Assembly: GCA_016839765.1 (NCBI GenBank)
Contig: JAEOTP010000033.1
Span: forward strand, 1 to 16,082
DNA: 16,082 nt
From: Promethearchaeota archaeon
GTDB lineage: Archaea; Asgardarchaeota; Lokiarchaeia; Sigyniarchaeales; SOKP01
Direction: 5' to 3'
The stretch's first letter is position 1, and each line of letters starts with the position of its first letter. This document shows, in pieces, positions 7,507 through 16,082 of this stretch. The notes below the pieces were generated by a model. The model did no database searches and was not told the DNA's origin. It saw nothing but the letters and a program-made list of their open reading frames with translations. The position numbers were made by a program, and so were the translations under genes.

Positions 7507-8526
7507 CTAACTCCTATACTCATCTCCACAATCACCAATTATTTGAAATAGATCATTTGATTTAGAACTTATAGTTTCAATTTTTTGTATATCTTCTTGA
7601 TCTAATGAAAAGCTAAAAATTCTTGAGTTTTCTTTAATATGTTCAGAAAGGCCTAATCTTACACCAATTATTGCTCCAACTACAATTGGCTTTTCTAAAA
7701 TATAACGAACAGCAACGTTTGCAATGCTCACATTATGCTTATTAGCTATATTTTTTAAAGTTTTGAGCATTTTCTGAAAAAGATTCCAATCCCCCCATCG
7801 ATCGATCATATTCTTATATTTATAAAGAGAAGCGGTATTTAATTGCTGCCTATTAGGTTCTGCTTTTCCAAGGTATCTCTCAGTTAATAATCCTCCGCAC
7901 AAAGTACCATATGCTAGTAATTTAATTCCATACTTTTCGCATAAATCTGCCATGTATGTTTCAGGTCGTCTATCGATCAATGAATATTGAACTTGATTAG
8001 ACACAACATTTATTCCCATATTTAAAAATTCTTTAACATGTTCTGTATCAAAATTAGTTAATCCTAAGCTGGCAATTATCCCTTCTTGTCTTAAATCATC
8101 TAGAAATTCAATAGCTTTAAGATAATTTTTGTCTTGATAATCCCACCAGTGAAATTGAACCATATCTAGAACATCCATACCCATACGTCTTCTTGATATG
8201 TTAATAGCTTCTTCAACTATTTCTCTTGTTATTTTTTGTGGTCTTGGCACCCATTTCGTAAAAAACCTTACCTCCTTAAGGATCTCTTCTTTCTTTTGTT
8301 TAATCATAAATTCTCTAAGTATTTTTACGTAATCTTCAGCAGGTCCATAATGGTCTGCTAAATCCCATGTTATAAATCCGTGATCTATGTGTCTTTCCAT
8401 ACTTTTTATTGCTTGTTCTTTATTTATGTGTCCATGCGCACCGGAAACTTGCCACATTCCATTCAAAATGCGACAGATTTTAAGGTTTTGATTTAAATTT
8501 GTTCTGCTTTCTGAAGGTAATTTCAT
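7507..8526 (-). CDS. Aldo-keto reductase
   Basis: NGMWQ, WDLADHYGPAE (D/Y), FTKW (K), QFHWW (H), LGLTNF, NQVQYSLIDR. Confidence 0.93.
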   Translation of the reverse strand: MKLPSESRTNLNQNLKICRILNGMWQVSGAHGHINKEQAIKSMERHIDHGFITWDLADHYGPAEDYVKILREFMIKQKKEEILKEVRFFTKWVPRPQKITREIVEEAINISRRRMGMDVLDMVQFHWWDYQDKNYLKAIEFLDDLRQEGIIASLGLTNFDTEHVKEFLNMGINVVSNQVQYSLIDRRPETYMADLCEKYGIKLLAYGTLCGGLLTERYLGKAEPNRQQLNTASLYKYKNMIDRWGDWNLFQKMLKTLKNIANKHNVSIANVAVRYILEKPIVVGAIIGVRLGLSEHIKENSRIFSFSLDQEDIQKIETISSKSNDLFQIIGDCGDEYRS

Positions 8527-8583
8527 GATATTTGCCTATTTAAATTATTATCAAATTTAATATTGCTAGAAATATTTTTCCAA

Positions 8584-8616
8584 ACTTAAAGGAATTCTAT
8601 AAAAATTATAAGATCT
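8584..8616 (-). promoter_or_regulatory. Shared upstream element, copy 1 (aldo-keto reductase promoter)
   Basis: + strand ACTTAAA-GG-AATTCTATAAAAATTATA-A-GATCT; near-identical to 15410-15441. Confidence 0.65.
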
Positions 8617-8648
8617 TAAATTTATTTTAAAAAAATATACTAGGTTAA

Positions 8649-8726
8649 ATATATTTAGCCTCTGATAATTCCTCCTGGGTCACAGGAGCAATAATTTCCG
8701 TAGATGGAGGATTATCTGTAAATTAA
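8649..8726 (+). pseudogene. C-terminal remnant of a short-chain dehydrogenase/reductase gene
   Basis: Translates IYLASDNSSWVTGAIISVDGGLSVN*, the canonical SDR C-terminal motif; preceded in frame by TAA (8646-8648), no start codon. Confidence 0.8.
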
Positions 8727-8727
8727 A

Positions 8728-9009
8728 TTATAAACTTTTTCTTTCCCATCTCTCAATTATTTCAAATGAATTTTCTATGTGATCTTTAATAACAGTATAG
8801 AGCTCATCATAATTATTTCTTATAATATGAGTGATGAAACGTAATAAAAAAGCATTATTTATAAATTTAATAAGGCTTTCTCTTTGTTTTGGAATTAAAT
8901 TATCCCAAATCTTCTTAATATAATTGATGCGTCTATTCTTTTCCTCAATTAATTTATTAATAAACCACTCTTCAAAAGAAGTTAAGTTTCTAAATAAATA
9001 TCCCATCAA
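8728..9009 (-). CDS. Small hypothetical helical protein
   Basis: 93 aa ORF filling an otherwise empty gap; TTG 9009 or ATG 9006 start; TTTAAATA TATA-like box about 25 nt upstream; no family recognised. Confidence 0.6.
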   Translation of the reverse strand: MMGYLFRNLTSFEEWFINKLIEEKNRRINYIKKIWDNLIPKQRESLIKFINNAFLLRFITHIIRNNYDELYTVIKDHIENSFEIIERWERKSL

Positions 9010-9090
9010 AAATGTAATGATTATGACTCTATTTAAAGTATCATTTTCACAAAACTATTTATAGTAATACTTCAAACAAGCTTAAAATGG

Positions 9091-9103
9091 AAAAAAAAAA
9101 AAA
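9091..9103 (-). terminator. T13 tract, candidate archaeal terminator of the fasciclin gene
   Basis: 13 A on + strand, 25 nt past the minus-strand stop at 9129. Confidence 0.5.
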
Positions 9104-9128
9104 TAATAGGTAGCCACTTAATGAGATT

Positions 9129-9530
9129 TTAGGAAGGTAATATTACCTTATCAATAACATGAATGATCCCGTTATCAGTTTCTATATCTGCGTTAATAAC
9201 GGTTGCATCATTTACTTTTACTCCATGAGTGGCATCTATAGTAATTTCCTGTCCTTGTAGAGTTTTTACCTTCATAGTCCCTGAAAGGTCAGTCGATTTC
9301 ACTTTTCCTTCGATTCCATGATATAAAAGGATTCCTTTTAATTTTTCAGGTTCTTTTAATAAGGAATTCAGAGTTTCAGAAGGAATCTTAGAAAAGGCAT
9401 CATCAGTAGGAGCAAATATAGTAAATGGTCCTCCAGTTGATAATGTATCTACAAGGCCAGCAACTTCAGCAGCTTTTAGTAAAGTTGAAAAGCTACCAGC
9501 TTCTTTCGCTACTTCTACAATATTTGGCAT
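9129..9530 (-). CDS. Single-domain fasciclin (FAS1) protein without signal peptide
   Basis: H1 FTIFAPTDDAF, YH motif, H2 NGIIHVIDKVILP. Confidence 0.95.
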   Translation of the reverse strand: MPNIVEVAKEAGSFSTLLKAAEVAGLVDTLSTGGPFTIFAPTDDAFSKIPSETLNSLLKEPEKLKGILLYHGIEGKVKSTDLSGTMKVKTLQGQEITIDATHGVKVNDATVINADIETDNGIIHVIDKVILPS

Positions 9531-9783
9531 ATTTAATAATACTCCATATTTTTAATTTTTATTTAGCATTAAAATTTAAGAAGATATACTATTAATAAAT
9601 TCCAATTATAAAGTATTAATAGCAAATTTTTGGAAAGAAGACAAATTTTCCCCATTTAATTATCCTCCTTTTACTAGATTTAAGTTTTACGACAAAATAC
9701 ATTACTTAATAATAATTTGAAAAATAAACTGAAAATTAATAACTTATAATTTAGTCTATATTTAAAAATAACATTGGAAAAAT

Positions 9784-10479
9784 ATGAAATTATTAGGATT
9801 AATTGGTGGAATGAGTTGGGAAAATACTATTGAGTATTATCGGGTTATAAATGAAATAATAAAGTCTGAATTAGGTGGTTGGAGTTCAGCAAAAATCTTG
9901 CTCTATTCTGTAAATTTTGATAAAATTTTTTCTTTACAAAATCAAGGAAAATGGAATGAAATTGCCGAAATTATTATTGATATTAGCAAGAGATTAGAAT
10001 CCGCAGGATGTTCATGTATAGTTATGTGTTCTAATACTATTCATAAAATTGCTGATGATGTAGAACGGGAAATTTCAATCCCTTTGCTTCATGTCATTGA
10101 TGAAACAGCAAAAGTTATAAAATTAAAGAATATAAGTACTGTAGGTTTGTTAGGCACCAAATTTACAATGGAGGATGGATTTTATGTTAATAGATTACAA
10201 GGCAGCCATAAAATTAACGTAAATTTACCAGATAAGGAAGAAATTAATTATATTAATGAAGCTATCTATATGGAATTTGCTCAAGGGCAATTTTTAAATT
10301 CAACGAAGTCTAAATTTTTACAGATTATTAATAAATTAAAAATTAATGGCGCTAAAGGAATCATTCTCGGGTGTACAGAAATTCCACTGCTAATTAATTC
10401 AAAAGATGTTGATATCCCATTATTTGATACGTTAAAGATTCATTTAGAAGCAGCTGTAAAATTTGCTTTATCTAAATAA
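9784..10479 (+). CDS. Aspartate/glutamate racemase family protein (YgeA-like)
   Basis: GLIGGMSWENT, CSNTIH, GLLGTKFTM, ILGCTEI. Confidence 0.92.
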   Translation: MKLLGLIGGMSWENTIEYYRVINEIIKSELGGWSSAKILLYSVNFDKIFSLQNQGKWNEIAEIIIDISKRLESAGCSCIVMCSNTIHKIADDVEREISIPLLHVIDETAKVIKLKNISTVGLLGTKFTMEDGFYVNRLQGSHKINVNLPDKEEINYINEAIYMEFAQGQFLNSTKSKFLQIINKLKINGAKGIILGCTEIPLLINSKDVDIPLFDTLKIHLEAAVKFALSK

Positions 10480-10588
10480 TTTTTCTTTGACTTTTGCTCC
10501 GCTTATTACTCCCAAAACTCCTCAAGCTAATGCTAAATTGAAAGTTAGTTCAATTATAAAATAATTAAAAAATATTCAAAAAAAATAA

Positions 10589-11578
10589 TTAAAAATCTAT
10601 ATTTTGCCCTATTCCTTTTTCTAAGGCTCTATCATACACAAGTTTTCCAACAGCAACATCTTGAGCACTGATTCCAACAGATTTAAATACGGAAATTTCT
10701 GAATCTGAAGTTCTTCCCGGTTCTTTTCCTGTTATAATATCTCCTATTGAAATAATATCATTTTCAGTTATAATTCCCTCACTTATCGGAATTAAATAAT
10801 CCCCAGCTTCAGCTAAACATGCTTTCTTTAATCCAGCAACTCGTAAAGAAGCTCGTTTAATTATTATTGAATCTAATTCTCGAGATTCTGGAGCGTGTGC
10901 ACCTATAGAAGAGATATGGGTACCCTCGACCACCTTATCCCCCATGAAAAGTGGTATTGTACTTGTAGTTGCAGCAACAATAATATCAGTATCAGATAAA
11001 AGGTCATCGCCTGAATTAGTAATTTCAACATTTATTCCTAATTCACTTTCAATTTCATTTTTAAATTCTTCAGCTGTTTCTTTTTTTAAATCAAATACTT
11101 TACATTTTTCTAATTTTCGATTTAATCCCCAATAAACTCCATGTACTTGTTTTCTTGCTTGTACTCCAGCACTATATATTCCTAATGTCGTACTATCCTT
11201 TCTTGCTAAATATTTAACTGAAACTCCAGTAGCAGCTCCCGTTCGTATTGCTGTAATGAGGCTTCCATCCATAATACCTACAATATCGCCAGTATTTATA
11301 TCTTGGACCATAACTTTTGCTAAAACTGTTGGCATATTATACTTTTCAGGATTTTGTTTGTATACTGATACTATTTTAGTTGCTAGAGCACTCATTTCGC
11401 CACCAATAATTCCAGGCATTATTAGTGTCAATCCCGGAGCAGGATCTGTTATTGCAATTCGTTGAGGAACAATCGCATTACCTAAAGTTAATTGTTTATA
11501 AGCTTCCTCAACATATTTCAATGCATCTTGCATTGTGAGTAAACTCGCAACATTTTCTTTTGTTAATATTCTTACCAT
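10589..11578 (-). CDS. Ornithine cyclodeaminase/mu-crystallin family protein (archaeal alanine dehydrogenase or ketimine reductase-like)
   Basis: ITAIRTGAA, SAGVQA, HISSIGA, RELD, VFKSVGISAQDVA. Confidence 0.92.
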   Translation of the reverse strand: MVRILTKENVASLLTMQDALKYVEEAYKQLTLGNAIVPQRIAITDPAPGLTLIMPGIIGGEMSALATKIVSVYKQNPEKYNMPTVLAKVMVQDINTGDIVGIMDGSLITAIRTGAATGVSVKYLARKDSTTLGIYSAGVQARKQVHGVYWGLNRKLEKCKVFDLKKETAEEFKNEIESELGINVEITNSGDDLLSDTDIIVAATTSTIPLFMGDKVVEGTHISSIGAHAPESRELDSIIIKRASLRVAGLKKACLAEAGDYLIPISEGIITENDIISIGDIITGKEPGRTSDSEISVFKSVGISAQDVAVGKLVYDRALEKGIGQNIDF

Positions 11579-11676
11579 TTTGAAAAATCAACTTCTTTTT
11601 ATTAAACAGATTCTATAATCTTGATTTCATGCAGTGTGAAATTATAAAATTCAAGGAAATTTAAATCTAAACATTT

Positions 11677-11934
11677 TTAAAAATTTACAATTTTACTATC
11701 CCTCTCCATATTATTTGAAAACCTCTTATTTATCCAAATTGCATACTGAATTCTTGTTAAAAGTAAGAGCCCAGCAAGGAATAATCCTATCCCAATAGCT
11801 AATAGAAATTGAAATTCTTTTTCCCCTATTAGCCTAAAAAGTATAAGCCAGATTATTAGTATTATTATTGCTATAATTATAATTAGAAATGAAATCTTCC
11901 TGATTTTTCTATTTACTCTATCGAATTCTTCCAT
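11677..11934 (-). CDS. Small two-TM hypothetical membrane protein
   Basis: 85 aa; two hydrophobic stretches flanked by basic residues. Confidence 0.6.
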   Translation of the reverse strand: MEEFDRVNRKIRKISFLIIIIAIIILIIWLILFRLIGEKEFQFLLAIGIGLFLAGLLLLTRIQYAIWINKRFSNNMERDSKIVNF

Positions 11935-12014
11935 TAATTAAAATTCAAGAAGATTTAATTTAATAATTTCATGATTATAATTCAATATTTAAAGTTTTAA
12001 ATGGTAGAAATAAG

Positions 12015-12434
12015 ATGAAAGAATTAAAGACCAGTTTGCATCATGCTCATCTATTTGCATCAAACGTGGATGAAAGTATACGTTTTTATGTTGAAATGTT
12101 TGGAGCAGAAATTCTTTTTGATTTAAAGATGGCAGGAGCTCGAAATGTTATGATAACAATTGGAACATCAAAAATTAATTTCTATGATCAACCGCCAAAA
12201 GATACAGGAAGAGGGGCAATTCATCATTTAGGCATAGAAACTGATGACCTTAAAGGTCTTGTGGCACATATGAAAAGTAAAGGATATAAGTTTAGAAACC
12301 AAATTAAAAGTTTTGGACCATTGAAGTATGTTATGGTTGCGGGTCCAGATAATGTGCTTTTTGAGCTTTTTGAAGTTATAAAAGAAAAAGTTACTCAGGA
12401 GCAATACAATTTAATCTCATCTTTAGTCATCTAA
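12015..12434 (+). CDS. VOC/glyoxalase family protein
   Basis: LHHAHL, SIRFYVEMFG, IHHLGI, GPDNVLFELFE. Confidence 0.9.
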   Translation: MKELKTSLHHAHLFASNVDESIRFYVEMFGAEILFDLKMAGARNVMITIGTSKINFYDQPPKDTGRGAIHHLGIETDDLKGLVAHMKSKGYKFRNQIKSFGPLKYVMVAGPDNVLFELFEVIKEKVTQEQYNLISSLVI

Positions 12435-12441
12435 AGAATTA

Positions 12442-12466
12442 TAGGTATAAATTTTAGGTATAAATT
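12442..12466. repeat. Tandem direct repeat TAGGTATAAATT x2
   Basis: Copies at 12442-12453 and 12455-12466 between convergent stops. Confidence 0.6.
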
Positions 12467-12501
12467 AAAAAAAAAGGATTTCTTAAATTTAGGTTGTTAT
12501 T

Positions 12502-13545
12502 CTATACAGAATATCTTTGGTTAATATTTGTCTGAAATTGAATATGAGGTCTTTGATGAGCTTGAGCTTGATATCCGCCTCTTTTTGAGACTAAATAAAA
12601 TTGCGCCATGGTGCCGTTATGTACTAGCGTTATACCGCGCCATTTGTTATCATTCGAGTTAAACTCAACTACATTTCCAAGTCCTATTCCTTCTCGAGTA
12701 GAGAAGTTAAAGGTTAGCTTCTGCAAAATGCTAATAATTTCATCATGATAATCGTTTGAATTTTCCTTAAATGGTTTATCTTTAAATCTTAATGCTTCAA
12801 TTGCAAAAGCTTTAAAGATATCATTACTCATATAGTTCCATGCATAAGAGTTAGCGTAAAATTCAATTCCAATAAACTCTCCATTTATAAATACTGCTAT
12901 TCCGCATTGATTTTCGACGTTCTTAAAGTTATTAATGATTTTTTCAGTTTGTTTTTCAGATATTTTCGTCATTTCGAGATAACTTTGAGTAGGTGCTACT
13001 TTCATGGCGTACTTCATCTCGGCTCTATGAGACTGAATCTCCCCCCAAACTGCTGCTTGACCACTTGCTGAAATTGCCTCATAAGCAACATTTGGGTGAA
13101 TTCTCATTTTTGATGATTTGAAGCTTCGTCCTTTAGTGTAATTCCAACGTGACTGTTCTACGCATTTTGCAGGTATAGTATATTTTTGTTTGCCTTTTCC
13201 TGGGTTTCCACTTAATACCCTTTGCTTACCTCCTACTGGGAGTAAAATAGGTTCCCAAATTGTACGGTCCTGCTTTCCACCATGGACAGTCATTCCAAAT
13301 GGAATTAATATTTGCTTTTCGCTCTTGTTTATAACTTCTAATTGACTTACAGCTTCAGTTTCAATTATTTCTATTAATCCAGATTCTTCTGCTTCTTTAA
13401 TACTAATAAAATCTATAAATTTATCATCTTGAATAATAATGGGTATAACAGTCATATTTTCATAAGCTTGAGGTGTCCCTAATTTAAGAAAACTTAATGG
13501 ATTTTTAAAAATTGACTCAACAATTTCAATACTTTCACTTTTCAA
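12502..13545 (-). CDS. ARPP-1 (DUF6569) family protein
   Basis: NMTVIPI, VSQLEVIN, GGKQDRTI, CVEQSRW, QAAVW, NQCGIAVFING motifs; TTG start 2 nt after the regulator stop. Confidence 0.8.
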   Translation of the reverse strand: MKSESIEIVESIFKNPLSFLKLGTPQAYENMTVIPIIIQDDKFIDFISIKEAEESGLIEIIETEAVSQLEVINKSEKQILIPFGMTVHGGKQDRTIWEPILLPVGGKQRVLSGNPGKGKQKYTIPAKCVEQSRWNYTKGRSFKSSKMRIHPNVAYEAISASGQAAVWGEIQSHRAEMKYAMKVAPTQSYLEMTKISEKQTEKIINNFKNVENQCGIAVFINGEFIGIEFYANSYAWNYMSNDIFKAFAIEALRFKDKPFKENSNDYHDEIISILQKLTFNFSTREGIGLGNVVEFNSNDNKWRGITLVHNGTMAQFYLVSKRGGYQAQAHQRPHIQFQTNINQRYSV

Positions 13546-13547
13546 AT

Positions 13548-13967
13548 CTAATCTTCCTCCAATTTATTATTTCTAATAATTTTTTTTTCTCCGTGGTTAG
13601 GCATTTCCTCTTCATAGAGAGGATCAACAAATTGATTAACAATCTTCTTGCCGTTTTTCGTAAGTTCAACCCCATAAGAGACTTTAAGTTTTCCTTTTTT
13701 ACTCAAACCGTTGATTCTTGTACCCCTTTCCACTTGAAATTCAGTATCTGTTAATTCTTCTTTATGCGTTTTAACTAAACCTCCTTTTTTAAGAGCATTC
13801 AGATGGTAATTTAGGTTTTGCTTTTCTATTCCTATATTATCCGCAATATCTATTGGCCTTTGAGACTTTTCAGAAAGTTCTTTCATGATATCAACTCTTA
13901 CAGGGCTCCGAAATACAAGCCCAACCTTATCGAAAATTGGCATTTTCTTTTCTTTTTTTTTAGCCAT
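13548..13967 (-). CDS. ArsR/SmtB-type winged-helix transcriptional regulator
   Basis: RSPVRVDIMKEL...DIADNIGIEKQNLNYHLNALKKGGLV; extended wing; YGVELTKNGK. Confidence 0.85.
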   Translation of the reverse strand: MAKKKEKKMPIFDKVGLVFRSPVRVDIMKELSEKSQRPIDIADNIGIEKQNLNYHLNALKKGGLVKTHKEELTDTEFQVERGTRINGLSKKGKLKVSYGVELTKNGKKIVNQFVDPLYEEEMPNHGEKKIIRNNKLEED

Positions 13968-13982
13968 ATAATCACATCATTA

Positions 13983-14025
13983 ATAGTAAAAACTTTTTTT
14001 ACTATAAAAATTTTTACTGTAAAAA
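13983..14025. promoter_or_regulatory. Overlapping inverted/direct repeat array, candidate operator of the ArsR-ARPP-1 operon
   Basis: ATAGTAAAAA-CTT-TTTTTACTAT (13983-14005); tandem TTTTTACT(A/G)TAAAAA at 13996-14010 and 14011-14025. Confidence 0.6.
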
Positions 14026-14201
14026 TAAATATTCATTTGCATATTTAAATGTTTGTCTTTTTCATTAATAATTTCAGGTTTGAAAAGGAAAATTAATAGA
14101 AATGAAAAAAAGAAATTAATTTTAAATGGATTAAAGAAGGGATACTCTTTCTATTCTTTTTATTCATATAATTATTAAAATTAAAGGTATAAACTTAAAT
14201 A

Positions 14202-14444
14202 TTATTGTTGTTCATTTGAATTAAGTTTTTTAAAATAGTGATTAATTAAAGAGCAGCCTCTATTATTCTTACCATCTTTATACCCTTTCCCATCGCATAA
14301 GTGGCAGAGACACTTCCAATAAACAAATTTTTTTCCTTGGTAATAGTATTGAATCTGCTCACAAAGATTTTTTGCGATATGCTCAGGTATTGGAACTGTT
14401 AAAGAATCTATATAAAATGAATATAATAGAGTCATAATTATCAA
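14202..14444 (-). CDS. Small Cys-rich hypothetical protein (start uncertain)
   Basis: IPxxxAxxLCxxI ... CLCHLC ... NRGCxLIN; 5 Cys; the real start may lie downstream of 14444. Confidence 0.6.
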   Translation of the reverse strand: MIIMTLLYSFYIDSLTVPIPEHIAKNLCEQIQYYYQGKKFVYWKCLCHLCDGKGYKDGKNNRGCSLINHYFKKLNSNEQQ

Positions 14445-14505
14445 ATAAATGAGATTAATATTAAATCATCTCTGGACCAATTTTTAAAAATGCTTTTATT
14501 CAGCT

Positions 14506-14523
14506 AAAAAAAAAAAAAAAAAA
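14506..14523 (-). terminator. T18 tract, candidate terminator of the heliorhodopsin gene
   Basis: 18 consecutive A on + strand, 17 nt past the stop at 14541. Confidence 0.55.
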
Positions 14524-14540
14524 GAAAATTTTTAACATAT

Positions 14541-15386
14541 TTAACCTGTCGGAGAGAACACACCTGCAAAAACAAGCCATGCTAGAAATGTTTTTGAAAC
14601 AAGACTTAATAACTGATATACTCTTTCGCCATATAAGTAATCCTTCCATTTACCGACTCCTTTATATTGAAGAATCATGTTAATTGCGAACGTATTAAAG
14701 AAAAGCAATTCAATTCCATAAATCATATAAACAAACCAAGGAATTCCGGGTCCAACAGAAACATCGGTATTAATAAAGTATGCGGTGATTACGATCCATG
14801 GTACTGCTCCAGCGATCACACCCAAATAGTAGGGTGTCCAATTAATCTTCTCTTTTAATTTCCTTGTGTATACGTTATAATTCTCCATAACTAATCCGAA
14901 CATATTCATTAGAAAATTAGAAACAAATATCATAAAAAGAGACCAAAAATCAAGGACACCGAAAAACAATGCAATCAAAAAAATCATAACAGAGCTAGAA
15001 AAAGCATATTCAAACCAACGTATTTTATTAACCCCTCTTTTTAGATCCCTTACATATTTTTTGTTTAGGGGATAAGCGATCAAGAAATGTGCTAACGCAG
15101 ATAATAATAGAAAGGTTCCAACAAGCGCACCTAACGCAGTGAAGGTGAAAAATACTTCTATAACTGGCCCAAAAGTAGGTGGAGGTCCAGGATCAAAATT
15201 TTGATAAAAGGTATAGATATCTGCCGAAAAGCCTAATTGGGGTAAGAATCCGAATATAACCATCAGTAAACCCTGAATTAAATGCAAAAAAAACATATTC
15301 CGATTGAATTTCCTTAGATAATCGAAAGAAATATCAGATTTTGGGATTAACCACTCATCTTTTAAATCATTATCAGTAGAGTTCAT
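14541..15386 (-). CDS. heR: Heliorhodopsin
   Basis: 281 aa, 7 TM; LRKFN...LHLIQG, SALAHF, RWFEYAFSSSVM (counterion Glu), GLVME, GERVYQLLSLVSKTFLAW (SxxxK retinal lysine). Confidence 0.96.
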   Translation of the reverse strand: MNSTDNDLKDEWLIPKSDISFDYLRKFNRNMFFLHLIQGLLMVIFGFLPQLGFSADIYTFYQNFDPGPPPTFGPVIEVFFTFTALGALVGTFLLLSALAHFLIAYPLNKKYVRDLKRGVNKIRWFEYAFSSSVMIFLIALFFGVLDFWSLFMIFVSNFLMNMFGLVMENYNVYTRKLKEKINWTPYYLGVIAGAVPWIVITAYFINTDVSVGPGIPWFVYMIYGIELLFFNTFAINMILQYKGVGKWKDYLYGERVYQLLSLVSKTFLAWLVFAGVFSPTG

Positions 15387-15409
15387 ATTTCAAAAAATGA
15401 GAACTTCAT

Positions 15410-15441
15410 ACTTAAAATAATTCTATAAAAATTATAGATCT
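15410..15441 (-). promoter_or_regulatory. Shared upstream element, copy 2 (heliorhodopsin promoter): TATA-like box plus palindrome
   Basis: ACTTAAA-AT-AATTCTATAAAAATTATA-GATCT; perfect TCTATAA-AAA-TTATAGA at 15422-15438; minus-strand TTTAAGT lies 24-30 nt before the ATG. Confidence 0.65.
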
Positions 15442-15505: not shown

Positions 15506-15693
15506 GTTTAAAATTTTTAAATTTTAAAAAATAATCGGCATTCGATCATCTCTTATTAAATTTTTATCCTTATTTCAATTACTTAATATTTCATTATGCG
15601 ACTCCTTAAGTGCTTTCATTTTGATCTATTAAATAGTGATAAATAATGAACAATAAAAATAATTTTATAAAAACAACCTTTAAAGATGCTAAA

Positions 15694-16082
15694 ATGAAGT
15701 TTCCAGAAGTTTCAGGATCTAATTTAGAATTTAGAGAGTATAACATACCATATGATTTAGATGGTCAATATAATATTATTATAATCCCTTTCTGGCGTTC
15801 GCATCAAGTACTAGTGGACCAATGGGCTACTTTTTTAAATACTTTAACTAAAAAGTACCCTGATTTAGAGTATTACGAAACTCCCACTCTGAGTATAGGC
15901 TATAAAGTAATGAGATTTATGATTGATGGCGGAATGAGGGCTGGCATACAAATTAAGAGAATAAGGGAAAGAACAATAACACTGTATATTAATAAAAGAA
16001 AATTTAGAAATAAATTAGATATTCCAACTGAAAGAACTATTTCTCTTTTTTTAATAAACAGAGAAGGAGATATTTTATGGAG
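15694..16082 (+). CDS. Edge-truncated thioredoxin-fold protein, ATP10-like prokaryotic family
   Basis: Open to the window end: MKFPEVSGSNLEFREYNIPYDLDGQYNIIIIPFWRSHQVLVDQW...YETP...FMIDGGMRAGI...RTITLY...LFLINREGDILW; TTTATAAA box at 15664-15671; not in ORF track. Confidence 0.7.
   Translation, partial: MKFPEVSGSNLEFREYNIPYDLDGQYNIIIIPFWRSHQVLVDQWATFLNTLTKKYPDLEYYETPTLSIGYKVMRFMIDGGMRAGIQIKRIRERTITLYINKRKFRNKLDIPTERTISLFLINREGDILW

Follow-up and report, generated by a model that had tools for sequence, protein, structure and literature searches.

A conserved promoter module shared by heliorhodopsin and aldo-keto reductase genes points to a two-gene regulon in a lokiarchaeal family

The window, the whole 16,082-nucleotide stretch of DNA that was analysed, carries a heliorhodopsin (HeR) gene and an aldo-keto reductase (AKR) gene, both on the minus strand. 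The HeR gene (14541-15386) encodes a protein of 281 aa that matches PF18761 over profile positions 1-241 of 242 (E = 2.4e-85). A T18 run on the same strand (14506-14523) lies 17 nt past its stop codon and is a likely terminator, so that HeR would be monocistronic here. The AKR gene (7507-8526) encodes a protein of 339 aa matching PF00248 (E = 1.2e-64), the best solved relative of which is MtmW (E = 6.6e-20); no NCBIfam equivalog was found at cut-off. The catalytic tetrad Asp-Tyr-Lys-His is present as D55, Y60, K91 and H126, with D55, Y60 and H126 aligning with MtmW and K91 assigned from the FFTKW motif, a region that HMMER aligns ambiguously. Upstream of AKR, the last 25 codons of a short-chain dehydrogenase/reductase (SDR) gene remain on the plus strand (8649-8723; 76-84% identity by tblastn to the SDR C-termini of G015, G031 and G033). 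An ATP10-like gene (15646-16080, plus strand; 168 aa in G019) diverges from HeR and is cut by the contig end. The only regulator gene adjacent in the window encodes an ArsR protein (13548-13967).

The earlier note on this DNA had described a sequence shared by the two upstream regions, and this was present as described: stretches 8584-8616 and 15410-15441 share 7 + 18 identical bases, with five more past a 1-nt indel, and the two copies lie on the same strand, each 5' of a minus-strand gene (AKR and HeR, respectively). A repeat search paired the same stretches as a family (D8) of 30 nt and 90% identity. Read on the gene strand, a 29-base promoter module consisting of a dyad (TTATAATTTTTATAG), 6 nt and a TATA-like TTTAAGT precedes both genes. 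Before AKR, the 15-bp A/T dyad, a candidate transcription-factor site, occupies 8597-8611 (minus strand), the 6-nt spacer 8591-8596 (AATTCC) and the TATA-like box 8584-8590 (minus strand, TTTAAGT), which is conserved together with the dyad. Before HeR, the dyad reads CTATAATTTTTATAG (15423-15437, minus strand; conserved before 13 HeR orthologues) and the TATA-like box is again TTTAAGT (15410-15416, minus strand), for which more distant orthologues have TTTAAAT or TTTATAT. The TCTATAA-AAA-TTATAGA palindrome that had been noted upstream of TTTAAGT was confirmed in the HeR copy as a perfect 7-3-7 palindrome (15422-15438), but this form is peculiar to the HeR genes of the present genome (G000) and G019; most orthologues, and the AKR copy (TTATAA / TTATAG), are imperfect. 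The conserved unit is the 15-mer dyad (TTATAA-N3-TTATAG) plus the TATA box. The symmetry TATAA-N3-TTATA is found in nearly all copies and would suit a dimeric factor, and the dyad is equally readable as a direct repeat, TTATAR-N3-TTATAR.

Specificity was assessed within the 3.32-Mb genome, which is 96% complete. The shared 18-mer occurred in two places only, and a scan with a 27-nt consensus (25 specified bases) returned the AKR and HeR sites alone at up to two mismatches, the next best match having three. In a position-weight scan of the whole genome, the two sites scored 34.5 and 30.4 bits, followed by a match of 18.2 bits inside an ORF (C33:55303), and a simulated Markov-3 genome gave no match of 18 bits or more. 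The other exact copies of the 14-mer (C20:1684 and C22:45824) also lay inside ORFs. As intergenic DNA in this genome has a GC content of about 20%, in-genome similarity is weak evidence on its own. When 1,999 noncoding stretches were compared by all-against-all BLAST, the element pair (38.2 bits) ranked about 340th, with about 340 pairs scoring as well or better, as would be expected if two A/T-rich intergenic stretches resembled each other by chance. At such a base composition an in-genome match of this size is not significant by itself, and the present one became convincing only when relatives were compared.

Comparison with relatives placed the element above chance, as it is conserved and specific across genomes. 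The module was about 92% conserved before eight AKR orthologues sharing 67-100% amino acid identity, against 0.39 and 0.50 in its flanks, and the element identity before 13 HeR orthologues was 0.82, against 0.49 and 0.53. Conservation before orthologues, on which the earlier note had made its proposal depend, therefore held for both genes, with the flanking DNA randomised. The AKR dyad was invariant before the eight AKR orthologues; on metagenome contigs it preceded 14 AKR genes, in two cases with an A at the 11th base. All 15 zero-mismatch matches in 42 genomes of the genus preceded HeR or AKR, and a search of 185,579 species' genomes gave 13 matches, of which 11 were on contigs of this lokiarchaeal family with the element before HeR or AKR. 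Together with the restriction to two sites in the present genome, these counts are at odds with the suggestion, considered in the earlier note, of a common motif or generic core promoter. Among metagenome matches, 14 of 44 preceded AKR and one preceded HeR; the element was also found in two other genera (G235 and G281). One-mismatch matches before other genes of the genus were no more numerous than those of a reversed-pattern control. Chance resemblance is refuted by this conservation and gene-specificity over dozens of genomes and metagenome contigs, and its probability is negligible.

The position of the element was also fixed. The distance from dyad to ATG was 50-51 nt in all 13 HeR orthologues and 83-85 nt in most AKR orthologues, and in each of the 13 HeR orthologues the TATA-like box ended 24 nt before the A of the ATG (a 23-nt gap). 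An archaeal TATA box is expected about 24-31 nt upstream of the transcription start. Because of the constant dyad distance and the position of the box, the data fit a leaderless or near-leaderless HeR mRNA, with the TATA box setting the predicted start at or just before the ATG. For AKR, the same box would put the start some 34 nt ahead of the ATG, and the mRNA would carry a leader and a Shine-Dalgarno sequence; the putative promoter-to-start stretch (8527-8583, minus strand) was delimited by the dyad spacing and a G-rich patch, which lies at -13 to -9 in all AKR upstream regions and genome-wide, and the transcription start would be expected near 8560, with a 5' UTR of about 34 nt and an SD-like AGG at 8535-8537. 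The upstream regions of 15 tRNA genes (aragorn) gave no clean promoter consensus, the base composition of 1,862 upstream regions aligned at the ATG showed an SD-like G peak and no positioned TATA, word statistics yielded only TTTAAATA-type enrichment, and a literature search found no study of Asgard/Loki promoters. As no generic promoter model emerged, the TATA assignment rests on the spacing and on the substitutions among orthologues. The fixed 23-nt gap fits a promoter and bears against the element acting as RNA, in the form of a 5' UTR hairpin in both genes with the promoters further upstream. Although a 7-bp A-U hairpin is possible in the HeR copy, neither copy folded better than shuffled sequence did (z = -0.97 and +1.0), the AKR copy did not adopt this hairpin in its minimum-energy structure, and the palindrome's imperfection in most orthologues counts in the same direction; an RNA element was consequently judged highly improbable.

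A stronger competitor is that the two genes share an extended core promoter and no dedicated regulator exists: double TATA-like boxes and a BRE would descend from a common ancestral copy, for example through duplication when an HeR-AKR pair was split, and would be conserved only for the promoter strength they set. The similarity does span the spacer and the TATA box besides the dyad, and TTTAAAT-type words, to which the boxes of distant HeR orthologues belong, are common upstream in this genome. As the dyad is made of A/T only and its halves are TATA-like, an extended core promoter is conceivable instead of an operator. The spacer at 8591-8596 and the adjoining dyad end resemble the BRE consensus, which is treated as a lead only. 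An archaeal BRE is purine-rich and lies directly upstream of TATA, and tAGAATT, found in G000-type and AKR-type promoters, may be such a sequence; distant HeR orthologues do not keep it and have GGTTTT or GATTTT there. None of the three candidate regulators compared (ArsR and two HTH_10 proteins) tracked the element, which also suits a core promoter. The ArsR protein was rejected as a dedicated regulator, being present in many element-less genomes and not found in the element-bearing G007, G014 and G035. Two short HTH_10 proteins were likewise rejected, being near-universal in the genus or not found in element-bearing genomes. No other transcription factor was seen among the recurrent neighbours; about ten AsnC/Lrp-type proteins are encoded in the genome. 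However, a promoter conserved only for strength would be expected to drift among A/T words, as the HeR TATA box does, whereas the dyad is nearly invariant over 67-100% protein identity and is used by no other gene in the 42 genomes. Furthermore, the AKR of G014, G002, G031 and G015 keeps the element beside a different HeR paralogue that has a different promoter. A core promoter alone was considered a rather unlikely explanation.

Gene order in relatives also bears on the pair. HeR and AKR were found in tandem on one strand, with AKR lacking a dyad of its own, in G001, G011, G024 and G035, which form one clade of the AKR tree (support 100/98). An AKR gene lying behind HeR without its own element is the pattern that would be expected of co-regulated genes, and lends support to that interpretation. 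Any co-transcription in these genomes would have to cross the spacer between HeR and AKR, a long, T-rich tract with the potential to end transcription. In G002, G014 and G031 less than 2 kb separates the two genes, and the HeR contig of G015 carries an AKR fragment. HeR was present in 11 of 12 AKR-bearing genomes of the genus versus 9 of 25 without AKR (Fisher p = 0.002, kinship uncorrected). The AKR gene was not found in several complete genomes that carry HeR and the element (G022, G032 and G016), and the partnership is therefore facultative.

Photolyase, DUF1722, Stay-Green, SDR and PNPOx-like genes were recurrent neighbours of HeR and AKR, and the two genes are members of a recurring light-stress island (photolyase, DUF1722, Stay-Green and SDR), of which the ATP10-like gene is also a recurrent member. 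A relaxed dyad search of 21 neighbourhoods did not find the true dyad before island genes and gave two weak extra matches only, at DUF1722 and at a more distant HeR site. Some island genes diverge from the pair: SDR from AKR in G015, G031 and G033 (and, as the remnant at 8649-8723, here) and from HeR in G013, and the ATP10-like gene from HeR in G000, G019 and G063. The dyad might accordingly be bidirectional, serving the divergent SDR or ATP10-like gene and having become common to HeR and AKR through a past back-to-back position. This was considered improbable, given that the dyad keeps no constant distance to the divergent start (about 68 to about 220 nt), that the upstream neighbour of AKR in G002 and G014 is a co-directional MFS gene with the element unchanged, and that SDR has been deleted in G000 with the element intact.

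The shared element is therefore best read as a conserved, gene-specific promoter module, and it probably defines a two-gene HeR and AKR regulon in a family of the Promethearchaeia (Lokiarchaeia). The element is specific, conserved and fixed in its spacing, and HeR and AKR are physically linked in relatives; these findings indicate that the two genes may be switched together, and the earlier proposal of a heliorhodopsin regulon is supported to the extent that sequence comparison allows. In the proposed arrangement, the 15-bp A/T dyad, a 6-nt BRE-like spacer and a TATA box (TTTAAGT or TTTAAAT) would form one module, with the dyad centre about 45 nt upstream of the predicted start. A dimeric transcription factor most likely binds the dyad. 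As the dyad lies just outside BRE/TATA, recruitment of TFB/TBP (activation) would be more probable than blocking. We infer the binding of this factor, the sign of the regulation and a signal that may be light, carbonyl stress or retinal. Physiologically, a light-stress or pigment-handling response is most likely, in which the sensor HeR would be made along with a carbonyl reductase that clears reactive aldehydes generated by light or converts scavenged retinal and retinol into each other.

A further-reaching reading, offered only tentatively, is that HeR and AKR function as a pair under what would be the first stress or light regulon to be defined in Asgard archaea, the dyad then being the operator of a lineage-specific regulator. 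The reductase could possibly handle the chromophore, converting retinal to retinol or the reverse; as neither SQS_PSY (phytoene synthase) nor an RPE65-type carotenoid oxygenase had a match in the genome, retinoids would then have to be scavenged. A search for BCD was uninformative, matching none of the control genomes. Alternatively, HeR could bind the reductase and tune its activity under illumination, by analogy with the HeR partners glutamine synthetase and an ABC transporter.

Only a few heliorhodopsins are of known function, and no Asgard HeR was found among them in the literature searched; nor did the search find mention of a link between HeR and an aldo-keto reductase. The element and the tandem arrangement name AKR as a concrete candidate partner of HeR, a new pairing, and both genes stand alongside photolyase and Stay-Green in an island of light-stress genes. 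For Asgard transcription, the module offers a candidate operator of 15 bp with two target genes, a size that suits EMSA, DNA pull-down and in vitro transcription without a genetic system.

Would-be light control of photoprotection genes recalls the CarH/LitR operators. However, no MerR/CarH-type HTH was found in this 96%-complete genome, and the motif differs from CarH operators, which are generally direct repeats. Lrp/FFRP operators offer a resemblance, though not membership: a 13-bp palindrome is bound by a dimer of FL11 (PMC2995911), and the present element is likewise a 13-15-bp dyad with an A/T centre beside an archaeal core promoter. Unlike those operators, it occurs as a single site per promoter rather than in a cluster, and its TATAA half-site is not a described specificity. 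The single site was counted against an operator reading, Lrp-type targets usually being clustered (PMC2995911).

Heliorhodopsins have been coupled to other proteins before, as with AbHeR and glutamine synthetase (PMC9529153) and OcHeR and the OmrDE ABC transporter (PMC11109279), and ten HeR neighbour groups (PMC11109279) and links to glyoxalase and glutaredoxin (PMC8612252) have been described. As in these pairs, HeR is here genomically coupled to an enzyme gene, and SDR oxidoreductases and photolyase, published as frequent HeR neighbours, recur in this island. In contrast to them, aldo-keto reductase is absent from the published groups, and the coupling runs largely through a shared promoter element and not an operon. 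A parallel to such an arrangement is the bop regulon of Halobacterium salinarum, comprising bop, crtB1, brp and blp with an upstream activator sequence, Bat and Brz (PMC2253796). The present case differs in its unrelated sequence, in a heliorhodopsin that is not an ion pump, in an AKR that is not a carotenoid gene and in its Asgard host, and no Bat-type protein (GAF-PAS-HTH_10) was identified in the genome. The likeness lies in the layout: the upstream activator sequences of bop and crtB1 are similar (PMC2253796, citing Baliga & DasSarma 1999 and Baliga et al. 2001), a rhodopsin gene and the unlinked genes that serve it carry similar activator sequences just upstream of TATA, and the bop genes are co-regulated (PMC2253796).

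The window forms one of the 96 contigs (C5) of a 3.32-Mb genome of 29.7% GC, which encodes a TBP and is therefore that of an archaeon; its positions 15956-16082 overlap contig C48 (C48:1-127), into which it probably continues. The heliorhodopsin gene (HeR; 14541-15386, minus strand) was identified by a match to PF18761 (E = 2e-85) and the aldo-keto reductase gene (AKR; 7507-8526, minus strand) by a match to PF00248 (E = 1e-64). The AKR motifs D55, Y60, K91 and H126 are present, the protein is far from every solved AKR (nearest MtmW, E = 7e-20), and no NCBIfam equivalog cut-off was reached by it. A search of 400 genomes of the phylum placed AKR orthologues in this family only, plus one in a sister family.

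The two similar stretches that the earlier note had reported upstream of these genes were confirmed in the sequence as described. On the gene strand, each of the two promoters reads TATAATTTTTATAGAATT, two variable bases and then TTTAAGT, with 25 of the 25 specified bases identical between the copies; this element, composed of a 15-bp A/T dyad, a spacer and a TATA-like box, ends 24 nt before the ATG of HeR and 58 nt before that of AKR. No site beyond these two was found when the genome was searched with up to two mismatches. As its intergenic DNA is about 20% GC and the pair (38.2 bits) ranked only about 340th when 1,999 noncoding stretches were compared with one another by BLAST, the match within the genome was by itself insufficient to carry the claim. 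A weight matrix built from 19 distinct instances of the element scored 34.5 and 30.4 bits at the two sites; the third-best match in the genome, at 18.2 bits, was intragenic, and a third-order Markov simulation yielded zero matches at 18 bits or more.

Conservation was assessed by comparing HeR orthologues (78-99% identical) from twelve further species of the genus together with their upstream DNA. These retain TTATAATTTT[T/A]ATAG followed by a short spacer and a TATA-like box, which reads TTTAAGT in close relatives and TTTAAAT or TTTATAT in more distant ones, and the start of the dyad lies 50-51 nt from the HeR ATG in all orthologues, the DNA on either side having diverged. In eight stand-alone AKR orthologues (67-100% identity) the dyad is followed by AATTCY or a close variant and by TTTAAGTT, with 83-85 nt from dyad to AKR start in most of them. 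Two further genera of the family, represented by genomes G235 and G281, likewise have the element upstream of AKR, the G281 copy differing at one place in the dyad centre. Mean pairwise identity over the 29 nt of the element was 0.92 in the AKR set, where the upstream flank had 0.39 and the downstream flank 0.50, and 0.82 in the HeR set, with flanks of 0.49 and 0.53. A chance resemblance between the two promoters is excluded by these comparative data. A second semi-conserved, TAATWATAA-like box was seen at about 8553-8565 (minus strand) and at the same position in AKR orthologues, some 24-34 nt downstream of the AKR TATA, around the predicted start, and with TTATAA inside it in some species; it may represent an initiator region, or else a second half-site.

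With one mismatch allowed, the element pattern gave 24 matches in 42 genomes of the genus. All 15 exact matches lay upstream of HeR or AKR, and the one-mismatch matches elsewhere did not outnumber those that a reversed-pattern control gave. A scan with the exact pattern of one genome for each of 185,579 species returned 13 matches, 11 of them on contigs of this family, identified by length as those with the element upstream of HeR or AKR, one inside a Bacilli ORF and one on a short contig with no downstream gene. Metagenomes gave 44 matches, 14 upstream of AKR and one upstream of HeR, the others falling in very A/T-rich DNA with unrelated or absent downstream ORFs. Taken together, the genus, genome, all-species and metagenome scans indicate that the element is neither common nor a generic core promoter. 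A core promoter that sets strength only, inherited by both genes, is a possible but less likely reading, accounting poorly for an invariant dyad beside a drifting TATA box and for the absence of the element from other genes. The element is a real, conserved, lineage-specific cis-regulatory module. Among the metagenome matches, an identical 28-mer, TTATAATTTTAATAGAAATCTTTTAAGT, occurred on five contigs of 15-18% GC (L116, L123, L125, L136 and L152), 63 nt upstream of an ORF unrelated to HeR or AKR (194-197 aa where complete), and is probably a chance match in an extremely A/T-rich organism. Contigs that the genome set assigns to this genus are labelled 'Odinarchaeota' and 'Hodarchaeota', and on a contig of a 'Methanobacteriota' MAG the element is followed by no gene (L099, L106 and L096); labelling or binning errors are the likely cause.

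The two genes are also linked in position. In four genomes (G001, G011, G024 and G035) HeR is immediately followed, after a gap of about 50-75 nt, by a same-strand AKR that has no dyad of its own. These four form one clade of the AKR tree (support 100/98), from which the tandem arrangement looks like a single event; AKRs with their own dyad fall in at least three other clades, the backbone of the tree being without resolution. The tandem spacers (L041-L044) contain a T9-T10-rich tract that could end transcription, the genes being established as adjacent and their co-transcription putative. In G001 it closes with TTTTAAAC, some 23 nt ahead of the AKR start codon, and such a spacer may double as HeR terminator and weak leaderless AKR promoter. 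In G002, G014 and G031, where AKR has its element, under 2 kb separates it from a HeR that belongs to a second clade (52-54% identity), and G015 has a full AKR on a separate contig and an 87-aa AKR fragment on its HeR contig. Within the genus, HeR was present in 11 of 12 genomes with AKR versus 9 of 25 without it (p = 0.002, the related genomes not being independent).

Second-clade HeR genes (L084:12065-12871, minus strand, and on L085, L090, L092, L022 and L025) usually precede an Asp/Glu racemase and are transcribed from a predicted conserved promoter of their own, TTATAAATTATWTAAAAAAGTTTTTTATT, the leader being about 50 nt long. As its TTATAA-to-TATA distance is 20 nt, the same as in the HeR/AKR element, the two may be related. 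Recurrent neighbours of HeR or AKR were Stay-Green, an ATP10-like protein, a 719-aa methyltransferase-domain protein, an SDR, DUF1722, DNA photolyase, a PNPOx-like protein, Asp/Glu racemase and an MFS transporter. Stay-Green adjoins one or the other in 10 genomes; in G019 (L071:7595-8056, minus strand; PF12638, E = 2e-47) it lies behind an ATP10-like gene divergent from HeR, at a place that would fall past the right end of the window. The SDR is divergent from AKR in three genomes (G015, G031 and G033) and from HeR in one, and its last 25 codons survive in the window as a remnant (8649-8723, plus strand) 76-84% identical to those three AKR-divergent SDRs, a deletion having removed all else of the gene, its promoter included, to within about 32 nt of the AKR element. 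A bidirectional element serving such divergent neighbours fails as an explanation, because the distance from dyad to divergent gene varies and some genomes have a co-directional gene upstream of AKR. Published surveys list SDR oxidoreductase, photolyase, glyoxalase or redox genes, and not AKR, among HeR neighbours (PMC11109279, PMC8612252). Among the papers searched, none contains both 'heliorhodopsin' and 'aldo-keto reductase', and none has the HeR-AKR partnership.

The second box of the element would be a TATA box, as canonical TATA words replace it in distant orthologues and its gap to the HeR ATG is fixed. The HeR mRNA would be leaderless, fitting the 23-nt TATA-ATG gap, and AKR, which has an SD-like G patch at -13 to -9, would have a near-constant leader of about 34 nt from its predicted start. 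The dyad would be placed immediately 5' of the BRE, with its centre some 45 nt ahead of the predicted start. Archaeal activators are known to bind there, a repressor also being possible. The folding of an RNA hairpin was considered as well and gave no backing, leaving that reading without support. Most likely, the dyad is a putative operator of a dimeric factor co-regulating HeR and AKR.

Candidates for this factor were sought in the genome. An ArsR-type HTH gene, paired with ARPP-1 directly downstream of HeR (12502-13967, minus strand), was rejected as dedicated regulator, being present in many element-free genomes and not found in three element-bearing ones that are near-complete; the pair accompanies HeR only in the clade of the window's genome and occurs elsewhere in the genus without HeR. 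Two HTH_10 proteins, one of them encoded at C17:92542-93192, were rejected as near-universal in the genus or not found in element-bearing genomes, and no MerR/CarH-type regulator was found in the window's genome. About ten Lrp-type genes are present as further candidates. On C17 (35478-36458, plus strand), a 420-aa frame has a TBP repeat (PF00352, E = 4e-22) between two AsnC_trans_reg (RAM) matches; its product is an unusual TBP-like/RAM fusion.

The HeR/AKR island points to a light or photo-oxidative stress signal. The genome, 96% complete, gave neither a phytoene synthase nor an RPE65-type oxygenase match; retinal is therefore probably scavenged, so that a retinal- or retinol-handling role of AKR or the SDR is possible. 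The search for BCD gives no information either way, the control genomes being without a match. Alternatively, AKR would remove reactive aldehydes, or HeR would modulate AKR directly. A carbonyl-stress theme would fit the DJ-1/PfpI (1898-2467), glyoxalase (12015-12434) and PNPOx-like (1419-1892) genes of the window, all without the element.

The proposal that one regulator co-controls HeR and AKR was supported by conservation and specificity, which define a two-gene regulon candidate in Loki-type archaea. The element would add a further example to the archaeal upstream operators, which are known as a kind. Its dyad is similar in form to the 13-bp palindromic sites of Lrp/FFRP proteins (PMC2995911), a similarity that serves as no more than a lead. 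The bop regulon is the nearest precedent. According to the account in PMC2253796, the activator sequences upstream of bop and crtB1 are alike: there, as for HeR and AKR, a rhodopsin gene and a partner share similar sequences upstream.
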